Positions 1,614 through 56,016 of a stretch of DNA of 64,000 bases are shown piece after piece. How positions within the stretch are numbered: the first letter of the stretch is position 1; each line of letters starts with the position of its first letter. Origin of the DNA: an uncultured Clostridia bacterium. GTDB lineage: Bacteria; Bacillota; Clostridia; TANB77; CAG-508. The position numbers and the translations under genes are program-made. A model generated the notes under the pieces. That model ran no database searches. It had not been told where the DNA came from and was given only the letters and a program-made list of their open reading frames with translations. The stretch covers positions 38,610 to 102,609 of the forward strand of contig CALXAP010000001.1 of NCBI GenBank assembly GCA_944386325.1, read 5' to 3'.

Positions 1614-1636
1614 TTAGTTTTCCTCCTTAAATTTAT

Positions 1637-2092
1637 TTATATATTGTTAAAGTTTAGAGTCATAATAATTGCATTTTGATCTAAACCATAATAATTTTTT
1701 CGTAAGCCTACTTTTTCAAAACCATATTTTAAATATAGATTAATTGCTGGTATATTTTTATCATTTACTTCTAATGTTATAGATTGTATATTTTTAATAT
1801 TTCTTCCTATTTTTATAAGATGTTCCAATATTATACTTCCTATACCTAATTTTCTAAAATTTTTTCTTACAACGATATTTGTAATGTGAATATCATCAAC
1901 CGATTTCCATATACCACCAAAAGCAACTATATTATTTTCTAGTTTAGCTACAATATAGTAAGAATTTTCATTTTCTAGTTCTTCTTTAAAAACATTATAG
2001 TTCCAAAAATCGTCAAATTCATCTTGTAGTACAGATTTTATTGAGTCTAAATCATCAATAGACATCTTATCTATAATAATATTATTTTTCAT
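1637..2092 (-). CDS. rimI: GNAT N-acetyltransferase, RimI-like ribosomal-protein-alanine acetyltransferase
   Basis: About 151 aa with GNAT fold motifs (VRKNFRKLGIGS). Conserved tsaE-tsaB-rimI order. Start taken as MKNNIII overlapping the tsaB stop. Confidence 0.7.
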   Translation of the reverse strand: MKNNIIIDKMSIDDLDSIKSVLQDEFDDFWNYNVFKEELENENSYYIVAKLENNIVAFGGIWKSVDDIHITNIVVRKNFRKLGIGSIILEHLIKIGRNIKNIQSITLEVNDKNIPAINLYLKYGFEKVGLRKNYYGLDQNAIIMTLNFNNI

Positions 2093-2768
2093 TTTTTTCA
2101 AGCATCCTCTCAGCTTGAGATTTTCTAAGATATATAGGCAATAATTCATCTGCATTGCAATATTCTTTTTTTTCTATTTTTTTCCTAGATGCTACTAATA
2201 CTTTAGAAGATAGCAAATCATTTTGCTCATGAAAAATAGCTTTAGACGACAATTTTTCTATAATCTTTTCTTTATTTACTATAGCACCATTTCCAACAAA
2301 AGTTATTTTATTATCTAAATTAGATAAATAGTTTAAAGCCTCATCAATATGTTCTGCTTTTAAATCTTGTATTGGTAAATGATTTTTATCAAATGTACAA
2401 TAATATATGTTTTCATTTCTTGCATCTATCATACTACAAATTAATCCATCAGAAATATTTACATTATATGAAAGTGCTTGTAAAGAAGAGATAGGGGCAA
2501 TAGGTATATTATGTACTTCTGAAATAGCTTTTATTGTAGCTATTCCTATTCTAATTCCAGTAAAAGAACCTGGTCCAACATCACAAGCTAAATAATTAAT
2601 ATCTTTTAATGAATAATTTGTAGTTTTTAATAATTTATCTATTAGTGGCATTAAATTTTCAGAGTGTGTTTTAGCATCATGAATACTTAATTCTTTAAGA
2701 ATTGTATTTTCATTTCCAAGACTCACTGAACATATATTAGTTGATGTACTTATACTAAGAATTACCAT
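2082..2768 (-). CDS. tsaB: tRNA threonylcarbamoyladenosine biosynthesis protein TsaB (YeaZ)
   Basis: 228 aa in the YeaZ/Kae1 inactive-paralog family. It overlaps tsaE and rimI in the conserved operon order. Confidence 0.75.
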   Translation of the reverse strand: MVILSISTSTNICSVSLGNENTILKELSIHDAKTHSENLMPLIDKLLKTTNYSLKDINYLACDVGPGSFTGIRIGIATIKAISEVHNIPIAPISSLQALSYNVNISDGLICSMIDARNENIYYCTFDKNHLPIQDLKAEHIDEALNYLSNLDNKITFVGNGAIVNKEKIIEKLSSKAIFHEQNDLLSSKVLVASRKKIEKKEYCNADELLPIYLRKSQAERMLEKNEK

Positions 2769-3228
2769 TTAAAACTACCTCCATTATATTTTTGAATCTA
2801 TCACTATTTGCATAAATGTTTAAAATTCTCTTATCTAGGTTATTAGGATCTCTTTCAAAAGTTATTTTTAAATAATTTTTAGGTAGAATACTTTCTATTA
2901 ATTCACCCCATTCAATAATGCATATACCATTATCAAAATATTCGTCTCCACCTAATGCGTAAAACTCGTCTATATCAGCTAATCTATATACATCAAAATG
3001 ATAGATATTTGTATTATTAGGTGCATTATATTCATTTACAATAGTAAATGTTGGGCTTGAAATTTCTGTATCAAGTGAGAAAAATTTAAGTATTCCTTGA
3101 GTGAATTTTGTTTTTCCAGAACCTAAATCACCACTTAATATTATAATATCACCATTTTGTAAATAATTGGCTAATTTACAAGCAAAATTAATTGTATCAT
3201 TTTCATTTTGCGAAATATATTTAAACAT
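2755..3228 (-). CDS. tsaE: tRNA threonylcarbamoyladenosine biosynthesis ATPase TsaE (YjeE)
   Basis: 157 aa with P-loop GDLGSGKT. First gene of the tsaE-tsaB-rimI cluster. Confidence 0.75.
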   Translation of the reverse strand: MFKYISQNENDTINFACKLANYLQNGDIIILSGDLGSGKTKFTQGILKFFSLDTEISSPTFTIVNEYNAPNNTNIYHFDVYRLADIDEFYALGGDEYFDNGICIIEWGELIESILPKNYLKITFERDPNNLDKRILNIYANSDRFKNIMEVVLNGNS

Positions 3229-3609
3229 ATAAAAACCTCACAGTAATCATTTAATATTATTGATAAAATCTAAAGTTAATTTTATATTAGTACTAATTAT
3301 TTGTAAATATATTTTGATAAAAAATCAGGGAAATTTACATTATTCTTTTAAGAATAATACAAGAGTTTAATTTGAAATTACCAAAAATAAATATATTATT
3401 TTATCGGTCTCACATGCTCCGTAAGTATGAGCTTACGATGTACAACTACCTCGACTGTCCAAAATAATATATTTATTTTTTCAGTTATAATCCTTCAGGT
3501 ATATTTATACAATTTAAAAAAATATAGCTGTAGAAATGTAGGGTCGAACAGTGTTCTCCCGAACTTCGAAGAAATTGCTTAAAAAGAGTAAAATATAAAA
3601 CTTAATTAA

Positions 3610-3628
3610 TTATAAGTAATACTTATAA
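3610..3628. promoter_or_regulatory. perfect 19-bp palindrome TTATAAGTAATACTTATAA (candidate operator) upstream of promoter
   Basis: Perfect inverted repeat read directly from the sequence. An identical copy lies at 4178-4196 upstream of the paralogous gene. Confidence 0.45.
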
Positions 3629-3648
3629 TTGCAATAAGTATAAATGAT

Positions 3649-3677
3649 TTGATATTTACATAAAAATGAGGTATAAT
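3649..3677 (+). promoter_or_regulatory. sigma-A-type promoter TTGATA-17-TATAAT
   Basis: -35 TTGATA at 3649-3654, 17-nt spacer, -10 TATAAT at 3672-3677, about 50 nt upstream of the 3728 start. Confidence 0.5.
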
Positions 3678-3727
3678 ATATTTAGTGATTAACTTAAGAG
3701 TGTTACATTATAAAGGAGTGTTTATTT

Positions 3728-4117
3728 ATGAAAAAGAAAATGTTGTATGAATATCAGAAAAAAATAAACGAATTAATTCAAAAATTTGAGGAAATTGATA
3801 TAATACATGATTACCGGGATGGATACCGGTATTTAGGATATTCATATGATAAAAAAACTTCGTACAAGTTGGCTATTCGAACTGGAATTTATGAAGAAAA
3901 AGTATTCACGTGTATTTCCGATGGATTAGTAAGAAGATTGCTATATATATATGAGGTTGAGGATATACTAACCGTCATTCTCGTAACAGAAGATATTTTT
4001 AGAATTATGAAAGAGAATGATTCAGATGAATTATTTGTGCTTTTGTACGAGGTGTTGATAGAAACATTATACGAAGCGTTATATACAATTGATGAAGAAT
4101 TGGAATTAATGCAGTGA
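3728..4117 (+). CDS. hypothetical small protein (129 aa), paralog family with YRDGYR motif; two CGG Arg codons
   Basis: ORF with RBS AAAGGAG 9 nt upstream and a rho-independent terminator at 4125-4160. No recognisable domain. The motif DIIHDYRDGYRYL is shared with the C-terminus of the 11070 gene. Confidence 0.6.
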   Translation: MKKKMLYEYQKKINELIQKFEEIDIIHDYRDGYRYLGYSYDKKTSYKLAIRTGIYEEKVFTCISDGLVRRLLYIYEVEDILTVILVTEDIFRIMKENDSDELFVLLYEVLIETLYEALYTIDEELELMQ

Positions 4118-4177
4118 AAACACTCATCCCTCTGACCATAATAGGTTGGAGGGTTTTTTTATTTAAAAATTTATTAT

Positions 4178-4196
4178 TATAAGTAATACTTATAAT
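4178..4196. promoter_or_regulatory. second copy of palindrome TTATAAGTAATACTTATAA
   Basis: Identical 19-bp palindrome to the one at 3610-3628. Confidence 0.45.
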
Positions 4197-4215
4197 AATA
4201 ATAAGTATAAGCAAC

Positions 4216-4244
4216 TTGATGTTTACATAAAAATAAGATATAAT
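4216..4244 (+). promoter_or_regulatory. sigma-A-type promoter TTGATG-17-TATAAT (paralog of the 3649 promoter)
   Basis: Near-identical to the 3649-3677 promoter block. 17-nt spacer. Confidence 0.5.
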
Positions 4245-4288
4245 ATAGTTAGTGATTAATTTATAATAATAATTAAGGAGTGAAAGTT

Positions 4289-4720
4289 ATGATTCATTTA
4301 ACAAAAAATAATGCAGTTCCTTTTTTAAGAGAACGGTTAGAAAGGCTGATTTTGGTGACTCACCTCCAGGGAGATTCCTATGATAGGGATCTAACAATGA
4401 TAATGGGTAAAAGAAAAAGACCGCTTGAAGATAATGCGTTCTTTATGACGTTGGATGAGTATAAGGAACATATTATAATTAGAAGAAAGTGGAATTATGA
4501 AGGAGGGAAAATTGTAGCAAAAAACGTCTTTAATACATTTGAAGACGATGATAATGAACCATTCTCTGAAAAGGGGATATTACGTGCTATAAATGAAATA
4601 ATTCATTTTTTGAATTTGACTACTAAGTTAAAAGTAGTCAAAATTGAAGATATTTTGCTTGACTCAGTGTTTTATACGTTAAATAGAGTTGAGCAATCAT
4701 TAAAAGTAAGAAAAAGTTAA
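4289..4720 (+). CDS. hypothetical small protein (143 aa), distant paralog of the 3728 gene
   Basis: RBS AAGGAG 8 nt upstream of ATG 4289 (the track's GTG at 4280 sits inside the RBS). Terminator at 4730-4770. Shares an H-x3-D-[SG]-Y motif and the duplicated upstream region with the 3728 gene. Confidence 0.6.
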   Translation: MIHLTKNNAVPFLRERLERLILVTHLQGDSYDRDLTMIMGKRKRPLEDNAFFMTLDEYKEHIIIRRKWNYEGGKIVAKNVFNTFEDDDNEPFSEKGILRAINEIIHFLNLTTKLKVVKIEDILLDSVFYTLNRVEQSLKVRKS

Positions 4721-4819
4721 TCACTCACACCCCTAGCTAGAATTAGCTGGGGGATTTCTTTTTGCCTAAAAAATAGTATATAAAATAAACAATTGCAAAA
4801 AATAAAATTGGTGGTTAAT

Positions 4820-5109: not shown

Positions 5110-5655
5110 ATGGCAGGAGAAAATAGTTTATATAATAATTTTGTAGAAGATTTTGCTAGAGTAATATGTCAGCAAACTGCAGGGAAAGAGTATTCTAATA
5201 TAATTTTTTTGTGTATAGGAACAGATAGAATAACAGGTGATACATTTGGACCTTTAGTTGGATATAAATTAGATATATTATTTAGAGATACTAATAGAAT
5301 TAATGTAATAGGAAATTTATCAGAACCTGTATGCTGTAATAATATAGATAGTGTTTTAAATAATATAAATGAACAATTTAGAAATCCTTTTATTGTAGCT
5401 ATAGATTCAGCTTTATCTATAGTGTCTGATAATATTGGGAGAATAACAGTATCTGATGGAGGGCTATGTATAGGTAGTGGTCTTGATAAAAATAATGTAC
5501 ATATTGGTGACATGAATATTAAAGGTATAGTAGGAAGAGATACAAGAAAACCTATACAGAATTTTAGAATATTACAAAATACTTCATTAAATTTGGTTAT
5601 GAGATTGGCAGATACTGTTTCAAAAGGAATATATCGTACAATAAATTTTAAATAA
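5110..5655 (+). CDS. yyaC: sporulation protein YyaC (GPR-like spore protease family)
   Basis: 181 aa with CIGTDRITGDTFGPLVG, the hallmark motif of the YyaC/DUF1256 family. RBS GGAGG. Confidence 0.7.
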   Translation: MAGENSLYNNFVEDFARVICQQTAGKEYSNIIFLCIGTDRITGDTFGPLVGYKLDILFRDTNRINVIGNLSEPVCCNNIDSVLNNINEQFRNPFIVAIDSALSIVSDNIGRITVSDGGLCIGSGLDKNNVHIGDMNIKGIVGRDTRKPIQNFRILQNTSLNLVMRLADTVSKGIYRTINFK

Positions 5656-7822: not shown

Positions 7823-7933
7823 CATTAAATTTTTTTAAATATATACAATTAGAAATTGAAATACATGTATCATAAAAAATTTTTTATAACATATATTAGC
7901 AATATAGATTACGAAGGAAGAGGTGTTATTATT

Positions 7934-8800
7934 ATGGTAGATAAAGCAGCAAATTATGAAGAAAGAATTAGAAGGGCAGAAGAAATATATAATAGAAGGC
8001 GAAACAATATAAGAACAAATGATTATGCAACTTTAAATATATCAGGGAAAAAGGATATTAAATTATTTAAGAGAATGTTTATACAAATTATAATTTGTTT
8101 AGCAATTTATTTTGGAGTTTATATTATACAAAATAATAATTATATATTTTCAGAGAGCTTTATAAGTAAAACAAAAGAGATATTATCATATGATATTAAT
8201 GTTAGTAATTTAACAGAGGGGGTATTACAGTACATAAATAATATAAAAGATGTGCAATCAATGATTCCAGAGCAGTACAGAGAAAAAGATGAAATAAAAA
8301 TTGATAGTACATTAAATAATCAAGCTTTACTGTTAATTGAAGAACCACTTTATACTAATGAAGCGAGTAGTCTAAGTCAAGTTGAGGAAGATGCAAAATT
8401 TATAAAAGAAAACTATTCTCTTATAAAACCTGTAGAAGGAGTTGTAAGTTCAGGTTTTGGTTCTAGAAATCCTACAACACCAACTGTTCCTAAATATCAT
8501 ACAGGTATAGATATTGCAAATGTTATTGGAACAAAAATAATTGCTGCTATGGAGGGAGAAGTGACTCAAGTATCATCAACAGGAGCATATGGAAATCATT
8601 TGAGAATAAAAAACGGAGAAATTGTTACTTTGTATGCACATTGTAGCAAGATATATGTTAAAGAGGGGGATAAAATAAGTCAGGGACAAGAAATAGCCGA
8701 AGTGGGGGATACAGGAAATGTAACAGGTCCACATTTACATTTCGAAATAAGGAGAAATAATGAATTTGTTGATCCAGCTTATGTAATTGATTTTGAATAA
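7934..8800 (+). CDS. M23 family (LytM-domain) peptidase, SpoIVFA-like position upstream of an M50 protease
   Basis: LytM motifs HTGIDIA and HLHFEI. N-terminal TM segment. RBS GGAAGAGGTG 8 nt upstream of ATG 7934. Confidence 0.7.
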   Translation: MVDKAANYEERIRRAEEIYNRRRNNIRTNDYATLNISGKKDIKLFKRMFIQIIICLAIYFGVYIIQNNNYIFSESFISKTKEILSYDINVSNLTEGVLQYINNIKDVQSMIPEQYREKDEIKIDSTLNNQALLLIEEPLYTNEASSLSQVEEDAKFIKENYSLIKPVEGVVSSGFGSRNPTTPTVPKYHTGIDIANVIGTKIIAAMEGEVTQVSSTGAYGNHLRIKNGEIVTLYAHCSKIYVKEGDKISQGQEIAEVGDTGNVTGPHLHFEIRRNNEFVDPAYVIDFE

Positions 8801-8806
8801 GATAGG

Positions 8807-9460
8807 ATGGAGACCAATATGCAAATAAAAGTGAATTTACAAATATTTATATTTATAATAATATTTTTATTAACAAATCAAATATTATTATATGCTATAT
8901 TAATGCTATTTGCATTTATACATGAAATTGGACATTTATTAGCAGGACTTATACTAAAGTTAAAGCCAAAGCTTATAAGAATAACACCATTTGGTTTGTC
9001 AATTACATTTGAAGGATATGGAGAAAAAGTACATAATAATATTAATAAAAAAAGATTACTTATTGCTTTAGCAGGTCCATTAATTAATATCATATTAGTT
9101 TGTGTGTTTATGCTTATACCAAATTGGAATTTTATAGTAAGCAGAGAAATTTTAGTATATTCTAATTTACTTATTGCTTTATTTAATCTATTACCAATTT
9201 ATCCATTAGATGGAGGAAGAATATTAGAAAATGTATTAAAATATAAAATGAGTAATATTAAATCAATTGAAATTACAAATAAAGTATCTAATTTATTAGC
9301 GATTTTACTTACTATTTTAGGCAGTTTATTTGTATTTTATATTAAGAATATAGCTGTATTTTTTGTTATTTTATATTTATGGTATTTGATTATTAAAGAA
9401 AATGAAAGGTTTAGATTATTAAAAAAAGCATATGATGTAGTGTTACAGTTTAGAATTTAA
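8807..9460 (+). CDS. M50 family site-2 protease (SpoIVFB-like intramembrane metalloprotease)
   Basis: 217 aa polytopic with HEIGH and a downstream LDGG motif, typical of the S2P/M50 family. Confidence 0.65.
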   Translation: METNMQIKVNLQIFIFIIIFLLTNQILLYAILMLFAFIHEIGHLLAGLILKLKPKLIRITPFGLSITFEGYGEKVHNNINKKRLLIALAGPLINIILVCVFMLIPNWNFIVSREILVYSNLLIALFNLLPIYPLDGGRILENVLKYKMSNIKSIEITNKVSNLLAILLTILGSLFVFYIKNIAVFFVILYLWYLIIKENERFRLLKKAYDVVLQFRI

Positions 9461-16287: not shown

Positions 16288-17445
16288 ATGGCCAATTATG
16301 TATATAGAGCGGTATTAGAAAACTACAGTAAAGAAGAAGGAATAAAATGTAAAGAAAAAGATTCTGATAAATCTTTAAGTTATCATGTTAATTTTGGAAG
16401 TAAAAAGAATGTGAAAACAAAATATATATCTACTAGTAAAAAAATAGGAATTGCTGCATATAAATATGCAATAGGTAAAGTTAATGAAAACAGAATTAAA
16501 AGATCAAAAATAGTATTAATAGATTTAGATAAATTACCAAAAGAACAAAAATATTATGACTTAACAGATGAAACTGTATTAAAAGAACAAAAAATTAGTC
16601 GTATGTCGAAAAATTATTGTAAATCAGATGCAGAAGTTACAATAGAAGGAGATATAGGACCTGAATGTGTAAAAGAAATACCACCAATGTTAGTAGATAT
16701 TTTGTTTGCACTTGAAAGTTCTGGTAATGCAAATAAAATGTTCTATGATATGTTATTAGACAGAGTGGCTGAAGGCGATATGGAACTAGATAAAATAATT
16801 GAAAAATGTAAATTTAATAAATTAGAGCAAAATTTTATTAAATCATATTATACAGATATGAATAAATTAGAAGAAACGGCTAAACAAATATTGCCTGAGA
16901 TGTTGGATGAGAAAAAAGAATATAATAGAGAGTTTATAGCAAATTGTATAAGAACACAGATAATAAAAAATGTTGTAGCATCACAATTACATAGAGATTT
17001 AAAATATTATACAGGACCATTAGAAGGAAAATTACAATCTCATTATAGAACAGAGAAAGATAGATTAAAAAAAGATTGTCATTATTTTAATGATTATTTA
17101 TCAATAAAAGTAAATAATGAGGATATGATAAAACTTCCTGGTGGAGTAGAATATAGAATAAATAATAAAAATGAGGTTGATTTATTACAGGTACTAGAGG
17201 CACATTTAATTAAAGAAAACTATGAAAACCCTTCAATTGCAAGAGAAAGTGATAACGGATATAAATTATTTAATGGAATAAGAATAGAGTTAGATAAAAA
17301 AATAGAAAAAAATAATAAAGAAATAAGTTTAGATGAGATAAAGAGTACATTAAAAATAGGAAATGCAAAAGAAAGAAAAGAAGTAGATAATTATATTAGA
17401 AAACAAATGCAAAGACAGAGGCAAGAACACGAAAGAGGTGAATAA
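16288..17445 (+). CDS. hypothetical protein (385 aa), gene 1 of an unassigned four-gene island
   Basis: RBS GAAGGAG. N-terminal region has R7 ... ISTSK(48-50), a spacing loosely reminiscent of the R-S-E ADP-ribosyltransferase signature (speculative). Long charged helical C-terminal half. Confidence 0.55.
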   Translation: MANYVYRAVLENYSKEEGIKCKEKDSDKSLSYHVNFGSKKNVKTKYISTSKKIGIAAYKYAIGKVNENRIKRSKIVLIDLDKLPKEQKYYDLTDETVLKEQKISRMSKNYCKSDAEVTIEGDIGPECVKEIPPMLVDILFALESSGNANKMFYDMLLDRVAEGDMELDKIIEKCKFNKLEQNFIKSYYTDMNKLEETAKQILPEMLDEKKEYNREFIANCIRTQIIKNVVASQLHRDLKYYTGPLEGKLQSHYRTEKDRLKKDCHYFNDYLSIKVNNEDMIKLPGGVEYRINNKNEVDLLQVLEAHLIKENYENPSIARESDNGYKLFNGIRIELDKKIEKNNKEISLDEIKSTLKIGNAKERKEVDNYIRKQMQRQRQEHERGE

Positions 17446-17446
17446 A

Positions 17447-17893
17447 ATGAATAGATATACAAATGAAGATTATTGTAGAGCTTATTCAGAAGTTTTAGGA
17501 ATATTAAGATATATACCTAAAAAGGATTTAATAAAAATACCAAAAGATGAGATAAAGTTTCTTATAAAAAATATGGATAATAAACATAATTACAAATACA
17601 ATTTTAATAAACCATTTGAAGATCAAAAATTAATGAGATTAAGTAAAATAATTATATCAAATATTTATATAAAGTATTTAGCAAAAAATAAAGAAGAATT
17701 ATTAGAAAATGAAAGAAAAGAAATTCTGAAGTTAGAAGAAGAAAATAGAAAAATATATAACACAGATAATATATTTAGAAATAAGAATTTAGATATTGAA
17801 AAAGATGAAAATAATAGTTTGATTGTTATAGAAAAACAAGGATTTTTTAGGAAAATAATAGATAAAATTAGGAGATTGTTCAAGTTGACATAA
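17447..17893 (+). CDS. hypothetical protein (148 aa), translationally coupled to the 16288 gene
   Basis: ATG 17447 overlaps the upstream stop (GAGGTGAATAAAATG). Lys/Glu-rich helical protein. Confidence 0.5.
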   Translation: MNRYTNEDYCRAYSEVLGILRYIPKKDLIKIPKDEIKFLIKNMDNKHNYKYNFNKPFEDQKLMRLSKIIISNIYIKYLAKNKEELLENERKEILKLEEENRKIYNTDNIFRNKNLDIEKDENNSLIVIEKQGFFRKIIDKIRRLFKLT

Positions 17894-17913
17894 AAACCAA
17901 AATATGGTATAAT
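17885..17913 (+). promoter_or_regulatory. perfect consensus sigma-A promoter TTGACA-17-TATAAT
   Basis: TTGACA at 17885-17890 and TATAAT at 17908-17913, spacer exactly 17, about 55 nt upstream of gene 17970. Confidence 0.6.
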
Positions 17914-17969
17914 ATTTAAGTAAAAATTTTTATTAAAAAATTAATTGATTTTGAGGAGGAATCCGAAAG

Positions 17970-18263
17970 ATGAATATTAAAGAAATTATTTATGGTGACG
18001 AAGGTGTTTTAAATCGTTTTAGAAATGGAGATTATACCATTTCTAATGAGGAGAAAAGCACAATATTAGATTTTGCTAGAAAAGTAAATTCTGGTGTCAA
18101 AGAGGGAAATTTAAACCCTCAGGACTTTGCTCTTTACAGTGAGTTAATGTATTTTTTTATACATTATTCTGAAGAGGTTGATGGAGCAGAAGAACTTCTT
18201 GATGAGATTTATGGGGAAGTTCAAGATGGATTAGATTTTGATTACAATGAGGAGGATGAATAA
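17970..18263 (+). CDS. hypothetical small acidic protein (97 aa)
   Basis: RBS GAGGAGG. C-terminus DGLDFDYNEEDE is strongly acidic. The stop is followed 4 nt later by the next start. Confidence 0.55.
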   Translation: MNIKEIIYGDEGVLNRFRNGDYTISNEEKSTILDFARKVNSGVKEGNLNPQDFALYSELMYFFIHYSEEVDGAEELLDEIYGEVQDGLDFDYNEEDE

Positions 18264-18267
18264 TAAT

Positions 18268-18912
18268 ATGGCGACACGTCCATCATGGAGAATAGTAAAA
18301 ACGGATAACTTTATCAAAATTGTAAAAAATGACTTTGAATTTAAATTTAATCCAGGTTTTTCTGTTACTCAAAAACGGAAAAATGTAGTTGCTTTACACC
18401 AAGCAATTGGTGATAAAGCATTAGAGGTTTCAACTAAATCTGATCTGAAACTCGGAAGAATGTTAAGTGCATTCAATTTAAGAATCAACGGAATACCACT
18501 TGAGTGTGTATTCCAATCTGCTAAGGTTTATCAATATGGAGGACCTTATAAAGACCTCTTAAATGTGTCTCCAAAAGATGCTAAAAGAGATGAGCGTCAC
18601 AAGAGTTCAGGAAAATTAATCTACTTCGAATATGAAGGAAAAAGATTTCCTCTTGAACCAAAAACATTCTTTTATGACTTTATTTATATAAAGGCTGTAA
18701 AAGAGTGTATTCCTTTGGAGGAGGTAAAAGATATAGTTCAGTATTCGCATTTTTCGGATATTGAATTCAATCCTAAAAAATCAATTAACTGCCAAGCTAA
18801 AAGCGTTGCTATAATTAAAGCAATGCTGATGGTATTTGGCGAAGTTCCTCATATCAATGATATTGAGGAATTTAAAAAATTTTACAAAGTAATTCAGGCA
18901 GAAAATGCTTGA
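18268..18912 (+). CDS. hypothetical protein (214 aa)
   Basis: ATG 18268 with RBS GAGGAGG. No recognisable motif. Followed by terminator 18918-18951. Confidence 0.55.
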   Translation: MATRPSWRIVKTDNFIKIVKNDFEFKFNPGFSVTQKRKNVVALHQAIGDKALEVSTKSDLKLGRMLSAFNLRINGIPLECVFQSAKVYQYGGPYKDLLNVSPKDAKRDERHKSSGKLIYFEYEGKRFPLEPKTFFYDFIYIKAVKECIPLEEVKDIVQYSHFSDIEFNPKKSINCQAKSVAIIKAMLMVFGEVPHINDIEEFKKFYKVIQAENA

Positions 18913-48997: not shown

Positions 48998-49021
48998 AAA
49001 ATATAAGCAGGAAGGGATAAT

Positions 49022-50806
49022 ATGGAGAATAAGAAAAATCAAAATAATCAAAAAAAGTATTTTATTATAGGAATTATTGTATTGATTGTGTTAGTTGCAA
49101 TATCTGTTGTACTAGGGGTATTTTTAAGTAAAAATGAAAAGAAAGATGATATACCATATACAGAATTAATTAATCAAATTGATGCTGGTAATGTAGAAAA
49201 GATAGAGATGACAACAGGAAGTCAAACAATTAAAGTAAAATATAAAGGAGAAGAAGAGGAAAGAACTGCAGTTGTACCTAATGTACAAGTATTTATGGAA
49301 TTAGTGCAACAGAAAGCATTAGAAGATGAAAATATAATTAACTTAGAGCAAAAGCCAGTAAATCCTGTAAAGCAAATTTTCTCTGCTATTTTTGCTTACT
49401 TACCTACAATTCTAATAATTATTTTATTTGTTTTATTGTTAAAAATGCAAGGCTTAGGTGAAAAAGGAAAAGTATATACAGGTGAAGAAAACAGGACAAA
49501 TGTTACATTTGACGATGTAGCTGGTTTAGACGAAGAAAAAAATGAAATGATAGAAATTGTAGATTTCTTAAAAGAACCAAAGAAATTTCAAGAAATGGGT
49601 GCAAAGGTGCCAAGAGGTATACTGCTTTGTGGTAAACCAGGAACAGGTAAAACATTAATAGCAAAAGCGATTGCAGGAGAAGCAAAGGTTCCATTTATTT
49701 CAATGAGTGGATCAGAATTTATTGAAATGTTTGCTGGATTAGGAGCATCAAGAGTTAGAAAATTATTTGAAAAAGCAAAGAAGATTTCACCATGTATTGT
49801 TTTTATAGATGAAATTGATGCAATAGGTTCTAGAAGAACAAGCTCAAGTGGTGCAGAATCTGAAAATAACCAGACTTTGAATCAATTGCTAGTAGAAATG
49901 GATGGATTTGAATCAGATAAAACTGTTATTGTACTTGCAGCTACAAATAGACCAGAAATGCTAGATAAAGCATTATTAAGACCAGGTAGATTTGATAGAC
50001 AGATAGTTATTGCAGCACCTGATTTAAAGGGAAGAGAAGAGATATTAAAAATACATGGCAAAAATAAAAAGTTTGCAAGTGATATAAATTTTGCAGATAT
50101 CGCATCAGATACTGCTGGATTTACAGGAGCAGAGCTAGAGAATGTTTTAAATGAATCTGCAATTATAGCAACAAGAAAAAAACATAGTGAAATAACAAAA
50201 CAAGATTTAGAAGATGCTGTTAAAAAAGTTACAGTGGGTATAGAAAAACATAGTAGAGTAGTATCTGATAAAGATAAGAAATTAACAGCATATCATGAAG
50301 CTGGACATGCAGTTGTAAGTAAGTTTTTACCTACACAAATGGGAGTAAAAGAAGTGTCAATAATCCCAAGAGGTGTAGCAGGTGGATATACAATGTATAA
50401 GACAAATGAAGATAAATACTATATATCAAAAACAGAAATGGAAGAAAAGATGATCGCATTAATGGGAGGTAGAGCTGCAGAGAAAGTGGCGTTAAATGAT
50501 ATTTCTACAGGTGCAAGTAATGATATAGAAGTAGCAACACAAATTGCAAAAGATATGGTTACTGTATATGGAATGAGTGATAAATTAGGACCAATTTCTT
50601 TAAAATCTGATGAAGATAAATATTCATTTGGATTAGATATAGAAGATGTAGTAGGACAAGAAGTTAGAAAATTAATAGAAATAGCTTATCAAAATGCACA
50701 ATTGATTTTACAAAATAATATGGATATATTAGATAAAGTAGCAGAAAGATTGTTAGAAAAAGAAGTTATATCTGCAGAGGAATTTGATAGTTTTTTTGAA
50801 TCATAA
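49022..50806 (+). CDS. ftsH: ATP-dependent zinc metalloprotease FtsH
   Basis: Walker A GKPGTGKT, second region of homology, HEAGHA zinc site. 594 aa. Confidence 0.9.
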   Translation: MENKKNQNNQKKYFIIGIIVLIVLVAISVVLGVFLSKNEKKDDIPYTELINQIDAGNVEKIEMTTGSQTIKVKYKGEEEERTAVVPNVQVFMELVQQKALEDENIINLEQKPVNPVKQIFSAIFAYLPTILIIILFVLLLKMQGLGEKGKVYTGEENRTNVTFDDVAGLDEEKNEMIEIVDFLKEPKKFQEMGAKVPRGILLCGKPGTGKTLIAKAIAGEAKVPFISMSGSEFIEMFAGLGASRVRKLFEKAKKISPCIVFIDEIDAIGSRRTSSSGAESENNQTLNQLLVEMDGFESDKTVIVLAATNRPEMLDKALLRPGRFDRQIVIAAPDLKGREEILKIHGKNKKFASDINFADIASDTAGFTGAELENVLNESAIIATRKKHSEITKQDLEDAVKKVTVGIEKHSRVVSDKDKKLTAYHEAGHAVVSKFLPTQMGVKEVSIIPRGVAGGYTMYKTNEDKYYISKTEMEEKMIALMGGRAAEKVALNDISTGASNDIEVATQIAKDMVTVYGMSDKLGPISLKSDEDKYSFGLDIEDVVGQEVRKLIEIAYQNAQLILQNNMDILDKVAERLLEKEVISAEEFDSFFES

Positions 50807-50838
50807 GAAAATGCTATTTTCTATTTTCTATATAAAAT

Positions 50839-50857
50839 GGAAGAACACTGTTCTTCC
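50839..50857 (+). terminator. ftsH terminator GGAAGAACACTGTTCTTCC
   Basis: Perfect 8-bp stem followed by ATTTTAT. Confidence 0.55.
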
Positions 50858-50873
50858 ATTTTATATAGAAAAA

Positions 50874-50898
50874 CCCCCAGCTTATTAAAGCTAGGGGG
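50874..50898. terminator. terminator hairpin CCCCCAGCT-tattaa-AGCTAGGGGG (repeat family with 51523-51551)
   Basis: A-run before and T-run after. Near-identical copy 650 nt downstream. Confidence 0.55.
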
Positions 50899-50906
50899 TG
50901 GAGTTT

Positions 50907-51371
50907 TTATATATACAAATAATCTGAAATGGTTTCAAATGAGCCAAGATCAACAGATTGTATATAATTTTCGTTTGAAACAATAAAATATAATAACTCG
51001 AAAATATTGGAGCTGATTATTTTTTTTAAGATTTCATTGCTTTCGATATTGTTTATTGTCAAAGATAATTTGTCGCCTCCTTTCATAGTCGACGCATAAA
51101 GAACAAAAGTAGATTCTTCAAAATTAATGTAATACTGATAAAATTTTTTTTGTTCTTGTTTCAATAAAGTAGTGTTAGCCATGATTTCATTGTAATTTTC
51201 ATTAAAAATATCATCATATTTTTTTGCAAGTTTGATGTTATTTTCAGTTCGTTTATATTCTTCAATAAAAGCATCTTCATCGATGCACTTGTTTTTTTTC
51301 AAAAACAAATCTGAATATTTTTCGAAATCATAAGTGCTCCAATTTTCCCAAGGTTTTACGTAAGCTGTCAT
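50907..51371 (-). CDS. hypothetical small cytoplasmic protein (154 aa), array member 5
   Basis: Own RBS AAGGAG and own terminator. No known domain. Confidence 0.5.
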   Translation of the reverse strand: MTAYVKPWENWSTYDFEKYSDLFLKKNKCIDEDAFIEEYKRTENNIKLAKKYDDIFNENYNEIMANTTLLKQEQKKFYQYYINFEESTFVLYASTMKGGDKLSLTINNIESNEILKKIISSNIFELLYFIVSNENYIQSVDLGSFETISDYLYI

Positions 51372-51522
51372 AAGAATAAACTCCTTTCAAAATAAAACAT
51401 AATGTTTACCTAAATATATTATACCAATATTATGTTAATTAAACAACAATAAATTACTTATACTTATTATAAGTAAAACTTATACATATACATATTATAA
51501 AAAACATATTTTTGATAATAAA

Positions 51523-51551
51523 AAATCCCCCAGCTAATTAAAGCTAGAGGA
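51523..51551. terminator. terminator hairpin, degenerate copy of 50874-50898
   Basis: AAAAATCCCCCAGCTAATTAAAGCTAGAGGAG. Confidence 0.5.
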
Positions 51552-51567
51552 GTGTAATAATAAAAGG

Positions 51568-52029
51568 TTAAACATTATAATCTTCAAGATCATCAAGATT
51601 TAGACTTTCTAAATAATTTCTTGATTCTTCTTCATATTCTTTAAAAAAGAAATCAATGAGATCTAATAAATCATATTTTGTATGTAGAGATATAAAATTA
51701 TATACTCTCTTACCTTTGTTAACAGCCCTATAAAGGGTCTGGTGTAAAATATACCATAACATATCGATGTAATCCTCGATATCATTACCAAAAAGTAGAT
51801 GACTTTTGATAACTTTTTCGTTATCAATCTCTATACCTATTTCTTTTTCTTCTGATTCGTAATTATCAACCATAAAGAAACCGGTTAAAACGTGATAACG
51901 ACCTTTTTGAAGATTAATTAAATCTTCAGTTTTAGCTGAGACAGTCAAATAATCAAATTCATGACTGTTCTCTAAATTAATAGTTGGATAACTGTTTAAT
52001 AATGCATATAAATCTTTTCTTTGTAACAT
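51568..52029 (-). CDS. hypothetical small acidic cytoplasmic protein (153 aa), array member 4
   Basis: RBS AAAGGAG. No known domain. Confidence 0.5.
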   Translation of the reverse strand: MLQRKDLYALLNSYPTINLENSHEFDYLTVSAKTEDLINLQKGRYHVLTGFFMVDNYESEEKEIGIEIDNEKVIKSHLLFGNDIEDYIDMLWYILHQTLYRAVNKGKRVYNFISLHTKYDLLDLIDFFFKEYEEESRNYLESLNLDDLEDYNV

Positions 52030-52240
52030 AGCAATTCTCCTTTTTACAATCTACTAACAACTCTACATAACTATATTATAATACAATTATGTAAAATATA
52101 CAATTATTATTTACTTATATTAATTATTAGATTTACTTATTTTTATAATTATGCATTCTAATCTGCAAAATATAAATTGAAAAGTGTATTTTTTTAGTAT
52201 AACAATAAAATCCTCCAACTTGTTATAGTTGGAGGAAAAA

Positions 52241-52639
52241 TTAAGAATTTATCAAATCGATTAAAAAATTAAATGTTCTTGCATTTAAATAATCAATTTC
52301 TTTAGTGTATTTTTCTAGATAGAAAAATATATTACTAAACATAAATTGATCTTTTTTTATAGCAAATACATTTTCTTTTTCGTTATTTTTATTTATAAAA
52401 ATAAGAAAATAATCTTTACAATCAATATGTGATAGAATTCTTCTATCTTCATTTTCAATAAATTCAATGTCTTGTTCTATAAAATCAATCAGATAATTTA
52501 ATTTCCGTTCAATAGGAACTTCATTTTTACTGAAAAAATAAAGAGCTTGCATTTGCATACCATCATCAAAAAAAATTTTCATTTTTTTAATGTTTTTGCT
52601 GATATAAATTTTCAAATTTTGGTTTAAATCAAATTTCAT
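52241..52639 (-). CDS. hypothetical small protein (132 aa), array member 3
   Basis: RBS AAGGAG. Terminator CCTCCAACT / AGTTGGAGG at 52203-52232. Confidence 0.5.
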   Translation of the reverse strand: MKFDLNQNLKIYISKNIKKMKIFFDDGMQMQALYFFSKNEVPIERKLNYLIDFIEQDIEFIENEDRRILSHIDCKDYFLIFINKNNEKENVFAIKKDQFMFSNIFFYLEKYTKEIDYLNARTFNFLIDLINS

Positions 52640-52942
52640 AAATAAGCACTCCTTATAAATAAAAAATTATTTAATACATATATATTATATAAAAATTATG
52701 TAAACGCGTCAATAGATTTATAATAGTAACTTATTATAATAGATATTAATATAACTTATATTAATGTAAGTTTCAGAAGAAAATAAAATTTAGATTTATT
52801 GTATATAAAATTTCTTTAGTTCTTTTATTGCTTACGATTACTAATACGAAATATATTAATAAAAAAATTTTTTCATATAAAATAATAAAAATCCCTAACT
52901 TATATAAAAGTTAGGGAAAAGTGTGTATGGAATATTACTTAA

Positions 52943-53311
52943 TTAAGTAATATTTTGAGAGTAAATTTGTTCAGAAGCTTTTTTAAAAGTTTCTGATACA
53001 TCAAATAAAATTTTAAATATTACGTTTTCCATAATTCCTTCACTTCTAGACAGAATTTTAAGGAATTTTCTAGAAGAATTTTCTAAACTTTCAATAATAT
53101 TATTGCTAGATAATAATTCTTTCTCGAAGAGTTTTGAAAAAGGAATTAATTTGATGTCAAAATAGTCAACAATTTGACCATTTTTTTCACATAAATAATT
53201 TCCCGCAAAGAATTCACCATCAATAGTTTCAAAACTATTATATGGAGATATTATTTTTCGCTGTAAAATATTATTTAAAATTTCTTTTTCCAATTTAAAT
53301 GTCTTATCCAT
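52943..53311 (-). CDS. hypothetical small protein (122 aa), array member 2
   Basis: RBS AAGGAG. Terminator CCCTAACTT / AAGTTAGGG at 52893-52918. Its stop codon lies inside the 24-bp palindrome AATATTACTTAATTAAGTAATATT. Confidence 0.5.
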   Translation of the reverse strand: MDKTFKLEKEILNNILQRKIISPYNSFETIDGEFFAGNYLCEKNGQIVDYFDIKLIPFSKLFEKELLSSNNIIESLENSSRKFLKILSRSEGIMENVIFKILFDVSETFKKASEQIYSQNIT

Positions 53312-53554
53312 GTTGCATTCTCCTTTGTATTTTTATAATATGATAAAATTTGTATATGTTTATTATAATGTGTTATTGTAAAAATGTCTAATTTATTTTG
53401 CTTATGTTAATTATAAGTATTGCTTGTATATAGAAATAATAAATCTAGTTAATATAAGTTTCAAAAAAGTCGATTTTCCCTATACAATAAAAAAGAATCC
53501 TCAATGTTAAACAAAACATTGAGGATTCAGTATAAATTTTTGGTTTATTTCAAG

Positions 53555-53953
53555 TTAATTACTTGAAATATTAGCAAAGAAAAAATTTTTTAATATATAG
53601 CTGATTTTTTCCTTTGCCTGAATTGTGATAGCTGGTGATGTTATCAAAAGCTCTTCCATCTCCAACAGAAATCTTTTCTTAAATTTATACAAACTTTCAT
53701 TTTTTTTTCTTTTTTTAGAATATTCATAAAGAAAAGATTTTTTTATGAAAGTACTTATATTGTACTTTCTTGTTTTTGTATTGTTCATTGAATTTGTCAA
53801 AAATAAATTTTGACTGTATTCATTATAGGCTATATATCGGTAAAAATACCGATTCTTTTCAGAATTATAACCATTACTATCTACAACTACTCTATTATTG
53901 AGTAATCGTATAATTTTATTAGGATTTAATTCATTGTTGTCGAAATGTTTCAT
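53555..53953 (-). CDS. hypothetical small basic protein (132 aa), array member 1
   Basis: RBS AAGGATG-like. Terminator AATCCTCAATGTT / ACATTGAGGATT at 53498-53531. Confidence 0.5.
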   Translation of the reverse strand: MKHFDNNELNPNKIIRLLNNRVVVDSNGYNSEKNRYFYRYIAYNEYSQNLFLTNSMNNTKTRKYNISTFIKKSFLYEYSKKRKKNESLYKFKKRFLLEMEELLITSPAITIQAKEKISYILKNFFFANISSN

Positions 53954-54130
53954 TTAGTGACATCCTTTCTATAATTATTTAACATATATATTATATTACT
54001 TTTATGTAAACAAGTCAATAAAAACATAAACATAGTATCCGATGTTTTTACATGACTATATTATAAAATATATTGAATTTGTACATAGATTAATATATAA
54101 TCTAAAAAAACGAATGAAGAGGTGTTTATA

Positions 54131-54946
54131 TTGAAAAAGAATGTAATAATTTTTTCTACAATTGGAATAATACTATTAATATTAATTGGAATATGTTGCT
54201 TTATTTTTTTTGATGAAAATCATAAGGTAGCAGTTTTATGCTATCATAATTTAGCAACTGCAGAGGAAATAGCAAATTTTCCAGATGAGAAGGATTGGGT
54301 AATTGATGTTAATAATTTTGAAGAACAACTAAAATATCTAAAAGATCATAATTATAAAACTTTAACTATTGATGAGTTTTATAAATGGAAAAAAGGAGAA
54401 ATAGATATTCCATATAAAAGTGTTTTAATTACTTTTGATGATGGTTTTTTATCTAATTATCATTATGCATTTCCATTACTTAAAAAATATAATATGAATG
54501 CAACTGTTTTTTTAGTTGGAGAATTTATTGATTCTGCAGAGCAAGAAGAGTGGGATGGGAATATTAAAACATATATGACAAAAAATTTATTAGAAAAATC
54601 AAAAATAGAGTATCCTAATATAGATTTTTGTTCACATTCATATGGACTACATTATGAAAATTCTATAAAAGAAAATTCTATTATAAGTATGAAAGATGAC
54701 ACTGTTATATTTGATAATAATATGACAGAAACAAAAGTATTTTCATATCCTTTTGGAGAGTATAATCATAATATAATTGAAGCATTAAAACAAAAAGGAT
54801 ATATAATGGCATTTAGGTATGGTCCAACAAAGGATGATTATAGAAAAGCATCAAGAGATGATGATGATTTTAAAATACCAAGATTAAATATTTCACACGG
54901 AATGGAAATTTGGAAATTTGGTTTGAGATTATTATTACCAAATTAA
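54131..54946 (+). CDS. polysaccharide deacetylase (CE4 NodB-homology domain), N-terminally anchored
   Basis: TFDDG motif (ITFDDGFLSNYHYAFP) and the His-rich second motif. TTG start with GAGGTG RBS. Confidence 0.75.
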   Translation: MKKNVIIFSTIGIILLILIGICCFIFFDENHKVAVLCYHNLATAEEIANFPDEKDWVIDVNNFEEQLKYLKDHNYKTLTIDEFYKWKKGEIDIPYKSVLITFDDGFLSNYHYAFPLLKKYNMNATVFLVGEFIDSAEQEEWDGNIKTYMTKNLLEKSKIEYPNIDFCSHSYGLHYENSIKENSIISMKDDTVIFDNNMTETKVFSYPFGEYNHNIIEALKQKGYIMAFRYGPTKDDYRKASRDDDDFKIPRLNISHGMEIWKFGLRLLLPN

Positions 54947-55051
54947 AAAGTTTAGATTTGTCTAATAAAATTATTTATTAAGAAGATAGTAGGTTTATAG
55001 GTAAAACCTTTATTAAAAACCTAAATATATTATATAGGGAATGTTAGTAAT

Positions 55052-55939
55052 ATGAATATTGAAAAAGTATATTTTAATGCAACAGATGGTTTAGAATTAG
55101 TAGGCTTATTACATAAAGGAGAAAATAAAACAAAGAAAATAATAATTTCCATACATGGTATGACAAGTAATTGTTTAAAAAAAAGAGAAGATGTAATTGC
55201 TAAAAAAGTAACTGATAATGGAATTGATTATTTTGGATTTAATAATAGAGGACATGATGTACATGCTTATTCTGGTAGAATGGAAGGAGACGAATACAAA
55301 AAATTAAATATTGGTACAGCATATGAAGATGTATTAGATTCTATATATGATATAAAAGGTGCAATATTAGAAATGATTTCAAGAGGATATGATGAAATTT
55401 ATTTACAAGGTCATAGCTTAGGTTGCACAAAAATAGTTTATTCATATAATAAATTAAAAAAGGATAATGATGATATATTAAAACATATTAAGGGAATAAT
55501 ATTATTATCTTTGGTGGATATTCCAAAAGCACAAAAGGTATTTTTAGGTGACAATTATGACAATATAATGAATATTGCATTGGAAAATGAAAAAAATAAT
55601 ATGAATAATCTTATGCCAAAAGAATCTTTTATACATCCAATAAGCACAAAAACATATTTGAGATATTTTAGAGATTATGAAGATATAGATTTTGCTAAGT
55701 ATTATGATAAAAATTATGATTATAAAGAATTAAATAATATTAATATTCCATTATTTATGAGATGGGGTAATGTAAATGAAATGATCGAGCAAGATGCAGG
55801 AGATTTAGCTAAAATGCTAAATGAAAAAATAAGAAATAATAAAAAGAATATAAATTATATAGATGGTGCAGACCATGGATATACTGATAAATATGATGTT
55901 TTATCAGATGAAATTTTAGAATTTATAAAAAATAATTAA
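55052..55939 (+). CDS. alpha/beta-fold hydrolase
   Basis: Nucleophile elbow GHSLG. C-terminal GADHGY consistent with the catalytic His region. Confidence 0.6.
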   Translation: MNIEKVYFNATDGLELVGLLHKGENKTKKIIISIHGMTSNCLKKREDVIAKKVTDNGIDYFGFNNRGHDVHAYSGRMEGDEYKKLNIGTAYEDVLDSIYDIKGAILEMISRGYDEIYLQGHSLGCTKIVYSYNKLKKDNDDILKHIKGIILLSLVDIPKAQKVFLGDNYDNIMNIALENEKNNMNNLMPKESFIHPISTKTYLRYFRDYEDIDFAKYYDKNYDYKELNNINIPLFMRWGNVNEMIEQDAGDLAKMLNEKIRNNKKNINYIDGADHGYTDKYDVLSDEILEFIKNN

Positions 55940-56016
55940 TGAAAATGTACTTGCATTAATAAATAATTAGTGATATATTTATAACCAAATTGATAAAAAT
56001 AGGAGGAATACTTTAA

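Follow-up and report, generated by a model that had tools for sequence, protein, structure and literature searches.

Introduction

The 'morons' of phages are autonomous units, each comprising a promoter, an open reading frame (ORF), and a terminator. The blp, pln, and cbn loci are regulons for bacteriocins and immunity, controlled by peptide pheromones. The anti-adaptor proteins of enterobacteria are unrelated to one another and separately transcribed. Arrays of orphan immunity genes are carried by LXG and type VII secretion system (T7SS) loci of the Bacillota. Such arrays are described too for the type VI secretion system auxiliary clusters of Vibrio cholerae (PMC5361080). Here, we consider an array that invites comparison with these systems. 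It lies in a 64,000-nucleotide stretch of an uncultured gut Clostridia bacterium genome (hereafter 'the window', to which all coordinates refer) and consists of five minus-strand genes, g1 to g5, encoding proteins of 154, 153, 132, 122, and 132 amino acids. We propose, with moderate confidence, that the array is a set of recombination-shuffled and co-regulated expression cassettes for orphan ORFs (ORFans).

Results

Seven cassettes with related non-coding ends and unrelated coding sequences

A first-pass annotation, made from the sequence letters and a list of ORFs, had located the five genes exactly, and had correctly given each its own ribosome-binding site and terminator. They are as follows (pI, isoelectric point; F numbers are protein families).

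50907-51371, minus strand: g1, 154-amino-acid acidic cytoplasmic ORFan, pI 4.7, family F1
51568-52029, minus strand: g2, 153-amino-acid very acidic ORFan, 30 aspartate plus glutamate residues, pI 4.6, family F2
52241-52639, minus strand: g3, 132-amino-acid ORFan, family F3
52943-53311, minus strand: g4, 122-amino-acid ORFan, family F4, seen in every haplotype
53555-53953, minus strand: g5, 132-amino-acid basic ORFan, pI 9.9, family F5

An AGGAG-type ribosome-binding site (Shine-Dalgarno sequence) precedes every gene. Further upstream, in each case, is a sigma-70-like promoter with a 17-nt spacer between the -35 and -10 elements. For g5, g4, and g3 these promoters match 11 of 12 consensus positions. 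When the five upstream regions are aligned, a common core emerges: TTGAyn, a spacer containing TTTACATAA, then TATAATATA. The combination TTTACATAA-N6-TATAAT has three exact matches in 64 kb, all within this array. Above the core promoter, g1, g2, and g4 have ATAAG-N5-CTTAT, 7 nt, and ATAAGYA. The resulting module, of approximately 65 bp, sits directly upstream of the -35 box in four of the five array genes. The promoters, with their candidate operators, are these.

51418-51483, minus strand: g1 operator pair and promoter (ATAAGTTTTACTTAT, 7 nt, ATAAGTAATTTATTG; TTGTTT; 17-nt spacer with TTAACATAA; TATAAT)
52075-52140, minus strand: g2 operator pair and promoter (ATAAGTAAATCTAAT, 7 nt, ATAAGTAAATAATAA, TTGTAT, 17 nt, TATAAT)
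52684-52759, minus strand: g3 promoter (TTGACG, 17 nt, TATAAT) and a looser ATAAGTTAT repeat with a 25-bp period; E 1.3e-6 with the module model described below
53362-53426, minus strand: g4 operator pair and promoter (CAAGCAATACTTAT, 7 nt, ATAAGCAAAATAAAT, TAGACA, 17 nt, TATAAT)
53990-54018, minus strand: g5 core promoter TTGACTTGTTTACATAAAAGTAATATAAT, without the ATAAG operator, in an intergenic region divergently shared with the neighbouring gene pda

The repeated TTACTTAT half-sites, remarked on in the first-pass annotation, are indeed present, as part of this larger module, with four copies upstream of g1 and g2. Alone, they are not enriched across the window (16 copies, compared to 13.0 expected). 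The longer pattern ATAAG-N17-ATAAG is matched exactly at only four places in the window, two of them upstream of g1 and g2. The others, at positions 3612 and 4179, belong to a second cassette locus.

3612-4753, plus strand: second cassette locus, near tsaE, between tsaE and a YyaC-like gene
3728-4117, plus strand: g6, 129-amino-acid ORFan (module 3612-3677, terminator 4128-4153)
4289-4720, plus strand: g7, 143-amino-acid ORFan (module 4179-4244, terminator 4730-4753)

Upstream of g1, g2, g4, g6, and g7 there are two ATAAG-N5-CTTAT-type sites, 22 bp apart, centred near positions -43 and -65; the second abuts the -35 element. Searched against the 64 kb, a hidden Markov model (HMM) of the module recovers precisely the seven cassette promoters, with E values between 3.5e-10 and 1.3e-6; the next best match has an E value of 0.13. 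If the model is built from the tsaE-locus promoters alone, the top non-self matches are the promoters of g1 (E 1.2e-3) and g4 (E 0.11).

Terminators behave similarly. A G+C-rich hairpin and T-run follow each of g1 to g5, on the minus strand. Nine terminator-like sites were detected in the region, versus 0.2 expected from shuffled sequences, and five of the nine follow the five ORFs.

50874-50897, minus strand: g1 intrinsic terminator, CCCCTAGCTTTAATAAGCTGGGGG and T-run
51526-51551, minus strand: g2 intrinsic terminator, a near-copy of the g1 and g7 terminators
52211-52236, minus strand: g3 intrinsic terminator
52892-52917, minus strand: g4 intrinsic terminator, with a strain-polymorphism breakpoint (52882) just beyond
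53495-53528, minus strand: g5 intrinsic terminator, 14-bp stem

The terminators of g1 and g2, flagged previously as near-identical, share 88% of bases over 33 nt (50865-50897 and 51518-51550). A third copy, the g3 terminator, is weaker, 67% identical to that of g1. At the second locus, the g7 terminator (CCCCTAGCTAGAATTAGCTGGGGG) differs little from the g1 and g2 terminators. These are also its best non-self matches, g2 ahead of g1, and 17 of 17 bases are common to the g2 and g7 terminators. All seven cassettes have related promoter modules, and most have related terminators; the coding sequences are mutually unrelated. Hence, the non-coding ends are shared and the coding sequences are not.

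Cassette content varies between fixed flanks

The array occupies a slot between two conserved genes. On one side is ftsH (49022-50806) and on the other pda (54122-54946), encoding a polysaccharide deacetylase. The array was previously described as downstream of ftsH. The two are adjacent, but they do not share a direction: the array is convergent with ftsH. It is divergent from pda. Nearly all of its neighbours are on the plus strand, in a long run that the array interrupts, and GC skew becomes negative across it.

Presence/absence polymorphism across strains, which the first-pass annotation had suggested looking for, is evident. At least six haplotypes place different cassette sets between the same flanks, pda and ftsH (L numbers denote related sequences).

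H1 (the window, L002, and others): F5-F4-F3-F2-F1
H2 (L109-L111; same families in L115): F5'-F4-F149-Fcys-F3-F2'
H3 (L113 and L114, partial contigs): ...F2-F1'
H4 (L001, L007, L004, L129): F5-F4-Fcys
H5 (L006, L126): F5-F4-Fcys, a g1-terminator remnant, and short tandem repeats
H6 (L120, L122, L124, L128): F5''-F4 and an Fcys cassette truncated by a short-repeat deletion

Cassette order is conserved among haplotypes, and g5 is the first gene of the array wherever the pda-side end was recovered. Most simply, the haplotypes would have arisen by differential loss and gain of cassettes, starting from a maximal set, F5-F4-F149-Fcys-F3-F2-F1. Note that Fcys is a cysteine-rich protein of 56-64 amino acids, with the motif PCxxC...EDCxFCxxFxEAC and no family match; its alleles are 40-64% identical (L001 8194-8370, L004 6587-6757, L109 7117-7311, L115 1492-1662; truncated in L120). 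Breakpoints fall in inter-cassette modules, for example at window position 52882, just past the g4 terminator. In some haplotypes, short tandem repeats lie at recombination junctions: three copies of ATCTTCCACCAAAnnGGGTATGnCC and two of AAATTCTTCAAACTGTCAAACTCCCGA (L006 6085-6175; L114 1-80).

In H1, H2, H5, and the H4 members L001, L007, and L129, identity to the window is 98-100% for flanking DNA or proteins. L004 and H3 represent a more diverged lineage, with synonymous divergence (dS) of 0.4-0.6 in the flanks. The cassettes do not follow their flanks. In L109, flank dS is 0.005-0.015, but dS is 0.47 for g2 and 0.89 for g5. In L004 the flanks have diverged (dS 0.40-0.58) but g5 has not (dS 0.04). 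Hence, cassette alleles have been exchanged between lineages.

Expression signals change less than the genes they serve. Between the window and L113, the g1 operator and promoter are 98% identical and terminators 94-95% (94% for g1), compared to 82-90% for coding sequences (82% for g1), 83-93% for 5' untranslated regions, and 57% for the spacer from terminator to operator. Cis elements are better conserved than coding sequences. Similarly, the g2 operator-promoter is nearly invariant among four haplotypes, and four haplotypes have one and the same g5 core promoter, with g5 proteins at 56-100% identity.

The tsaE locus varies too. In 'uncultured Clostridia bacterium BRZ_MK__bin25' (L065, L116), the closest GTDB representative found by the pattern scan described below, a single 159-amino-acid cassette replaces g6 and g7, between flanks 92% and 99% identical to those of the window. 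Its product matches the first half of g7 at 29% identity (E 3e-12).

The tandem site precedes nutrient genes in other gut Clostridia

We scanned one genome from each of 185,579 species with the pattern TATAAGYNNNNCTTATNNNNNNNATAAGYA. The scan returned 98 stretches. About a third (approximately 30 sites) came from metagenome-assembled genomes (MAGs) of uncultured gut Clostridia, often with 3-5 matches per genome; the source animals were rabbit, ruminant, deer, chicken, and human. In these 30 sites, conservation extends to positions that the pattern leaves free. Their consensus is two tandem 17-bp palindromes, TATAAGnnnnnCTTATA, N5, and TATAAGTAnnnCTTATA, with a 22-bp period. As an internal control, the free positions are not conserved in 52 matches from other taxa. 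The gut Clostridia sites are 20-35 nt upstream of good TTGACA/TATAAT promoters.

Downstream genes were identified by reading their translations. They include gdhA, encoding glutamate dehydrogenase, in five MAGs and purA, encoding adenylosuccinate synthetase, in two. Others encode a subtilisin-like (S8-type) secreted protease and a family-5 (oligo)peptide-binding lipoprotein, and many more are large genes with signal peptides or lipoprotein signals. The set looks like a nitrogen or nutrient-status regulon. With these genes downstream, the motif is a candidate operator for a clade-wide nutritional regulator.

We found no description of the tandem TATAAGnnnnnCTTATA motif in the searchable literature. 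The TnrA/GlnR box, TGTNA-N7-TNACA, is similar in length; its half-sites and spacing do not match, and we make no claim of a relationship. CodY sites and sporulation sigma-factor promoters were rejected on sequence. In JGI metagenomes, a scan with the promoter pattern returned 70 loci, none genuine according to the module HMM.

The encoded proteins are restricted to one lineage

The first-pass annotation held that the five proteins lack signal peptides, transmembrane helices, known motifs, and mutual likeness. We agree on each count. The highest mean Kyte-Doolittle score over 19 residues is 1.33, and there is no transmembrane or signal segment. Proteins g1 to g4 are acidic (pI 4.6-5.5) and g5 is basic (pI 9.9). 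Searches of Pfam, NCBIfam, PADLOC, and PHROGs with g1 to g5 gave no credible match, and sequence searches of the PDB gave nothing below an E value of 0.1. BLASTP detects no similarity among the five, and all hhalign profile-profile probabilities are 2.4% or less. A common C-terminal helix, seen by eye, was unsupported by hhalign.

Public assemblies (ENA, Logan, and NCBI) contain exact copies of the proteins, on 14-61 contigs. Beyond these, relatives are scarce. Among 5.8 billion proteins, g1 has only three other clusters (63-78% identity), g2 only five others (75-88%), and g5 only eight clusters (56-99%). For g3, the cluster (90% identity or more) comprises 14 members. When phmmer was run exhaustively with g4 against 1.84 billion representative proteins, it matched two, both close relatives. 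On this sequence evidence the five proteins are lineage-restricted ORFans, present only in this lineage. No relatives were found in IMG/VR, and phage and plasmid records contain no DNA similar to the locus.

Divergent alleles allow estimates of selection (ratio of non-synonymous to synonymous divergence, dN/dS, by the Nei-Gojobori method). Values are 0.26-0.28 for g2, 0.19-0.32 for g4, 0.21 for g5, and 0.29 for g1 against the L113 allele (dS of the g1 coding sequence, 0.51). For g3, which has few substitutions, the ratio is 0.57-0.89. Flanking housekeeping genes have ratios of 0.05-0.15, from the one diverged lineage (L004/L113) with enough substitutions. Given these ratios, we conclude that the ORFs are protein-coding and under moderate purifying selection.

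Palindromes at stop codons and at the array boundary

Three further inverted repeats were catalogued.

52931-52954: 24-bp perfect palindrome over the g4 stop codon, unique in the window
53546-53570: palindrome with a 10-bp stem (TATTTCAAGT AATTA ACTTGAAATA) over the g5 stop codon, read from the sequence
50824-50872: 49-nt hairpin with 24-nt perfect arms, between ftsH and g1, at the array boundary

The g4 palindrome is exactly where the first-pass annotation had put it, across the stop codon of the gene at 52943. In other haplotypes it is swapped for GTTTTGCTTAACTAAGCAAAAC, and three compensatory pair changes keep the hairpin. Both stop-codon palindromes are distinct from the terminators that come after them. 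The 49-nt boundary hairpin is likely a bidirectional terminator. Its core, GAACAGTGTTC, occurs at 3546, 9506, 45676, and 50843 (seven strand-wise matches, versus 0.39 expected). Three of the four copies directly follow gene ends; the copy at 3546 is intergenic, upstream of g6. Two copies are at the outer edges of both cassette loci. The core looks like a repeated terminator-like element. As a LexA site it was rejected on sequence, the spacer being 3 nt and not 4 nt.

Other loci in the window and its relatives

A region of very low G+C content (16288-18912, plus strand) encodes a 385-amino-acid DUF7587 protein, a 151-amino-acid unassigned ORF, and then a DarT1-associated NADAR antitoxin-like protein (18238-18912; Pfam E 1.3e-67). 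Possibly this is a toxin-antitoxin module of DarT type, or a defence module. Between secA and prfB, the window has a RhuM-family gene (59153-60163, plus strand). In L001 (1-1978), the same slot holds genes for a tyrosine recombinase and a DUF1016/YhcG protein, and a 172-amino-acid ORF; hence, this is another variable island. On the contig L003, which matches window 49000-56000 (the array region) at 100% identity, secA is split into ORFs of 143 and 757 amino acids (948-3683), possibly by a frameshift or an assembly error. A gene for an M23-domain protein followed by one for an M50 protease (7856-9460) resembles the spoIVFA-spoIVFB pair. Together with a YyaC/DUF1256 gene (5110-5655), this suggests that the organism forms spores. 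Known RNA families and tRNAs were not found in the window.

Discussion

A model for the cassettes

Our preferred explanation is that the array consists of co-regulated ORFan expression cassettes, shuffled by recombination. Each cassette is self-contained, comprising a sigma-70-type promoter bearing a candidate operator, a strong ribosome-binding site, one cytoplasmic ORFan of 120-155 amino acids, and an intrinsic terminator. A dimeric transcription factor would bind the tandem ATAAG-type sites; their position, next to the -35 element, suggests activation. Since tandem TATAAGnnnnnCTTATA sites are found before nutrient genes elsewhere, the cassettes would probably be switched together with that nitrogen or nutrient-status regulon, through the same operator. 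The repeated promoter and terminator modules, and the flanks ftsH and pda, would supply the homology for deletion, restoration, and exchange of cassettes. The products would be dispensable accessory proteins that bind other macromolecules. Dispensability, deep allelic divergence, and turnover suggest a role in competition or conflict at the level of strains.

Several points weigh against this explanation. Gene g5 has the core promoter only, with no operator, and the g3 operator is displaced and has a 25-bp period. Similarity of promoters and terminators across the two loci is only moderately significant (E 1e-3 to 0.2), and some of it may have arisen by convergence on a common factor and on RNA polymerase. 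Where alleles are divergent and their promoters still highly identical, recombination breakpoints could be the reason, not constraint. Promoter use, co-regulation, and the direction of regulation are themselves predictions from DNA sequence. No regulator gene is consistently beside the motif. Among neighbours there is one regulator each of LytTR, Fur, and LysR type, and the LytTR-type gene, identified by eye, adjoins the motif in one unrelated MAG only (L028). Partner genes were inspected within 64 kb of the genome only. Finally, AlphaFold2 models, built from shallow alignments, have a mean predicted local distance difference test (pLDDT) score of 38.5 for g2 and 40.6 for g1, which makes them unusable. 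Fold matches to models with a pLDDT near 40 would be meaningless.

A broader proposal can be made, which we offer as speculation and regard as doubtful. Here, the cassettes would be an integrase-free analogue of an integron array, previously undescribed, in gut Clostridia of low G+C content. Homologous expression frames, around unrelated ORFans at several chromosomal slots, would serve two purposes. They would be a regulatory switch, answering to a clade-wide nutritional regulator at tandem TATAAG-N5-CTTATA sites, and also recombination handles by which cassettes are swapped, lost, and regained. 

If our preferred explanation is right, the locus is a handle on the upkeep and exchange of ORFan genes in uncultured gut Clostridia. 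The tandem TATAAGnnnnnCTTATA motif is, in addition, a candidate operator of a global regulator in many uncultured Clostridia. For the immunity question, the result is cautionary: genes cannot be recognised as immunity genes from the layout of an array and polymorphism between strains alone.

Alternative explanations

The first-pass annotation read the array as a set of immunity cassettes. As a description, an array of separate and unrelated cytoplasmic orphans, this is sound; the immunity role has no direct support. Logically, the genes could protect against polymorphic toxins of competitors, or toxins encoded elsewhere, with strains differing according to toxin repertoire. We consider this unlikely, if the best of the alternatives. 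The array has one orientation, and its products are small, mostly acidic, mutually unrelated, cytoplasmic, and restricted to a lineage. Presence/absence in strains, and deep allelic divergence beside near-identical flanks, would also fit, although neither is specific to immunity genes. Furthermore, the Vibrio cholerae study documents immunity arrays arising by successive recombination (PMC5361080). Against this, hmmscan detects no Imm, SUKH, or SMI1 family of Pfam-A in g1 to g5 at E values up to 1, and none in g6 or g7. By Pfam, window ORFs are housekeeping genes, NADAR, RhuM, and a few unassigned. The absence of an adjacent toxin gene, already remarked on, extends to the full 64 kb, in which there is no toxin, LXG, WXG100, Rhs, or T7SS gene. 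Each cassette gene has its own promoter and terminator, rather than trailing a toxin gene in an operon, and the operator is common to metabolic genes in related species, which is not a known feature of immunity arrays. In addition, g5 is strongly basic, and the models of g2 and g1 score too low to provide fold evidence. The first-pass annotation had named two outcomes that would speak against its reading. Neither was seen: the five genes do not recur as a conserved housekeeping order in distant relatives, and they are not fragments of one degraded gene.

Alternatively, the slot between core genes could be a hotspot for anti-phage defence or counter-defence, turning over quickly under phage pressure. 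This we think improbable. Variable content between conserved core genes, and mosaic alleles, are consistent with such a hotspot, and the DarT1-associated NADAR gene and variable RhuM island lie elsewhere in the window. The only direct hint is protein P0062 (100-564), from the 791-nt contig L130, in which the N-terminal half of a ThsB-like TIR domain is joined, in frame, to the last 75 residues of g5. The TIR half has a Pfam E value of 1.8e-12, and matches PADLOC ThsB models at 3e-6. However, P0062 spans half of the ThsB profiles (positions 2-89 of 162) and comes from a single short contig that may be an assembly chimera. No cassette protein has a credible PADLOC match (g6, g7, F149, and Fcys give nothing). 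Likewise, the cassette proteins have no nucleotide-binding, nuclease, or TIR motifs. The empty IMG/VR, phage, and plasmid searches argue in the same direction.

Some observations on individual proteins belong here. In L130, an upstream gene overlaps the start of P0062, which could be a true recombinant or an assembly chimera. As a TIR protein, g5 itself was rejected: it has no Pfam TIR match, and the TIR part of P0062 is not shared with g5. As a HEPN protein, g4 was also rejected. Its sole PADLOC match (E 0.0014) is to an unannotated part of a CARF-HEPN model, and, because g4 has no histidine, it cannot carry the Rx4-6H motif.

Slightly less probable again is that the products are small regulators or adaptors of housekeeping machinery, induced by nutrient stress, such as modulators of neighbouring AAA+ proteases. 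In this they would be like the enterobacterial anti-adaptors. Separate promoters, with an operator of nutritional-regulon type, and small cytoplasmic products without enzymatic motifs, would suit this role. AAA+ protease genes are also near both loci: ftsH is adjacent to the array, and a LonC-type gene is three genes from the tsaE locus. This proximity may be coincidence. Moreover, dispensability, strain variation, and restriction to a single species cluster are unexpected for modulators of housekeeping functions.

Least probable is that the ORFs are non-functional or decaying, as chance frames or remnants in an AT-rich, recombination-prone spacer: the lack of homologues outside the lineage, truncated cassettes in some haplotypes (L120), the high g3 dN/dS (0.57-0.89), and low-confidence AlphaFold models could be taken that way. 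However, stop codons are A+T-rich, so that at 19-25% G+C open frames of 120-155 codons would be unexpected. For g1, g2, g4, and g5, whose alleles have diverged substantially, dN/dS is 0.19-0.32. Each gene has a canonical ribosome-binding site, promoter, and terminator, conserved above the spacers, and full-length alleles persist at 56-88% identity.

Comparison with known systems

Returning to the cassette explanation, each of the systems that the array resembles differs from it in identifiable ways. Orphan immunity arrays also comprise tandem genes, in the same orientation, for small and unrelated cytoplasmic proteins; they too are strain-variable, with recombination between conserved flanks. 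By contrast, the array described here has no nearby toxin or secretion genes, and no known immunity family. Each gene also has its own promoter and terminator, and an operator that is found elsewhere before gdhA, purA, and genes for a protease and for peptide uptake.

Defence islands and integration hotspots share the fixed slot, here from pda to ftsH, with content that differs in close strains. Unlike them, the cassettes include no known defence families, and there is no integrase or mobile-element signature. Phage morons similarly combine a promoter, one small ORF, and a terminator, between unrelated genes. Here, however, there is no prophage context, and there are no relatives in viral collections; the units are arrayed and have one common regulatory module.

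The blp, pln, and cbn loci are strain-variable and have several short transcription units, with a paired repeat upstream of the -35 element at a spacing of about two helical turns. In contrast, the annotated window ORFs include no histidine kinase, LytTR regulator, ABC-C39 exporter, or double-glycine leader. The repeats in the window are palindromic and, in other species, used for metabolic genes.

Chromosomal integron arrays, like this one, hold short, unrelated, mostly ORFan genes in one orientation, with strain-variable content. They also have repeated boundary elements, including palindromes of conserved structure near the stop codon. However, the window has no attI and no ORF of the IntI/Phage_integrase family. 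Sites of attC type, with R and L boxes, were not found at the array, to which no dedicated model for attC was applied. Only g4 and g5 have stop-codon palindromes, without GTTRRRY, and the 3' elements are ordinary terminators. Unlike integron cassettes, each cassette here has a complete promoter and terminator of its own, and the rearrangements look like ordinary homologous recombination, or deletion, at repeats.

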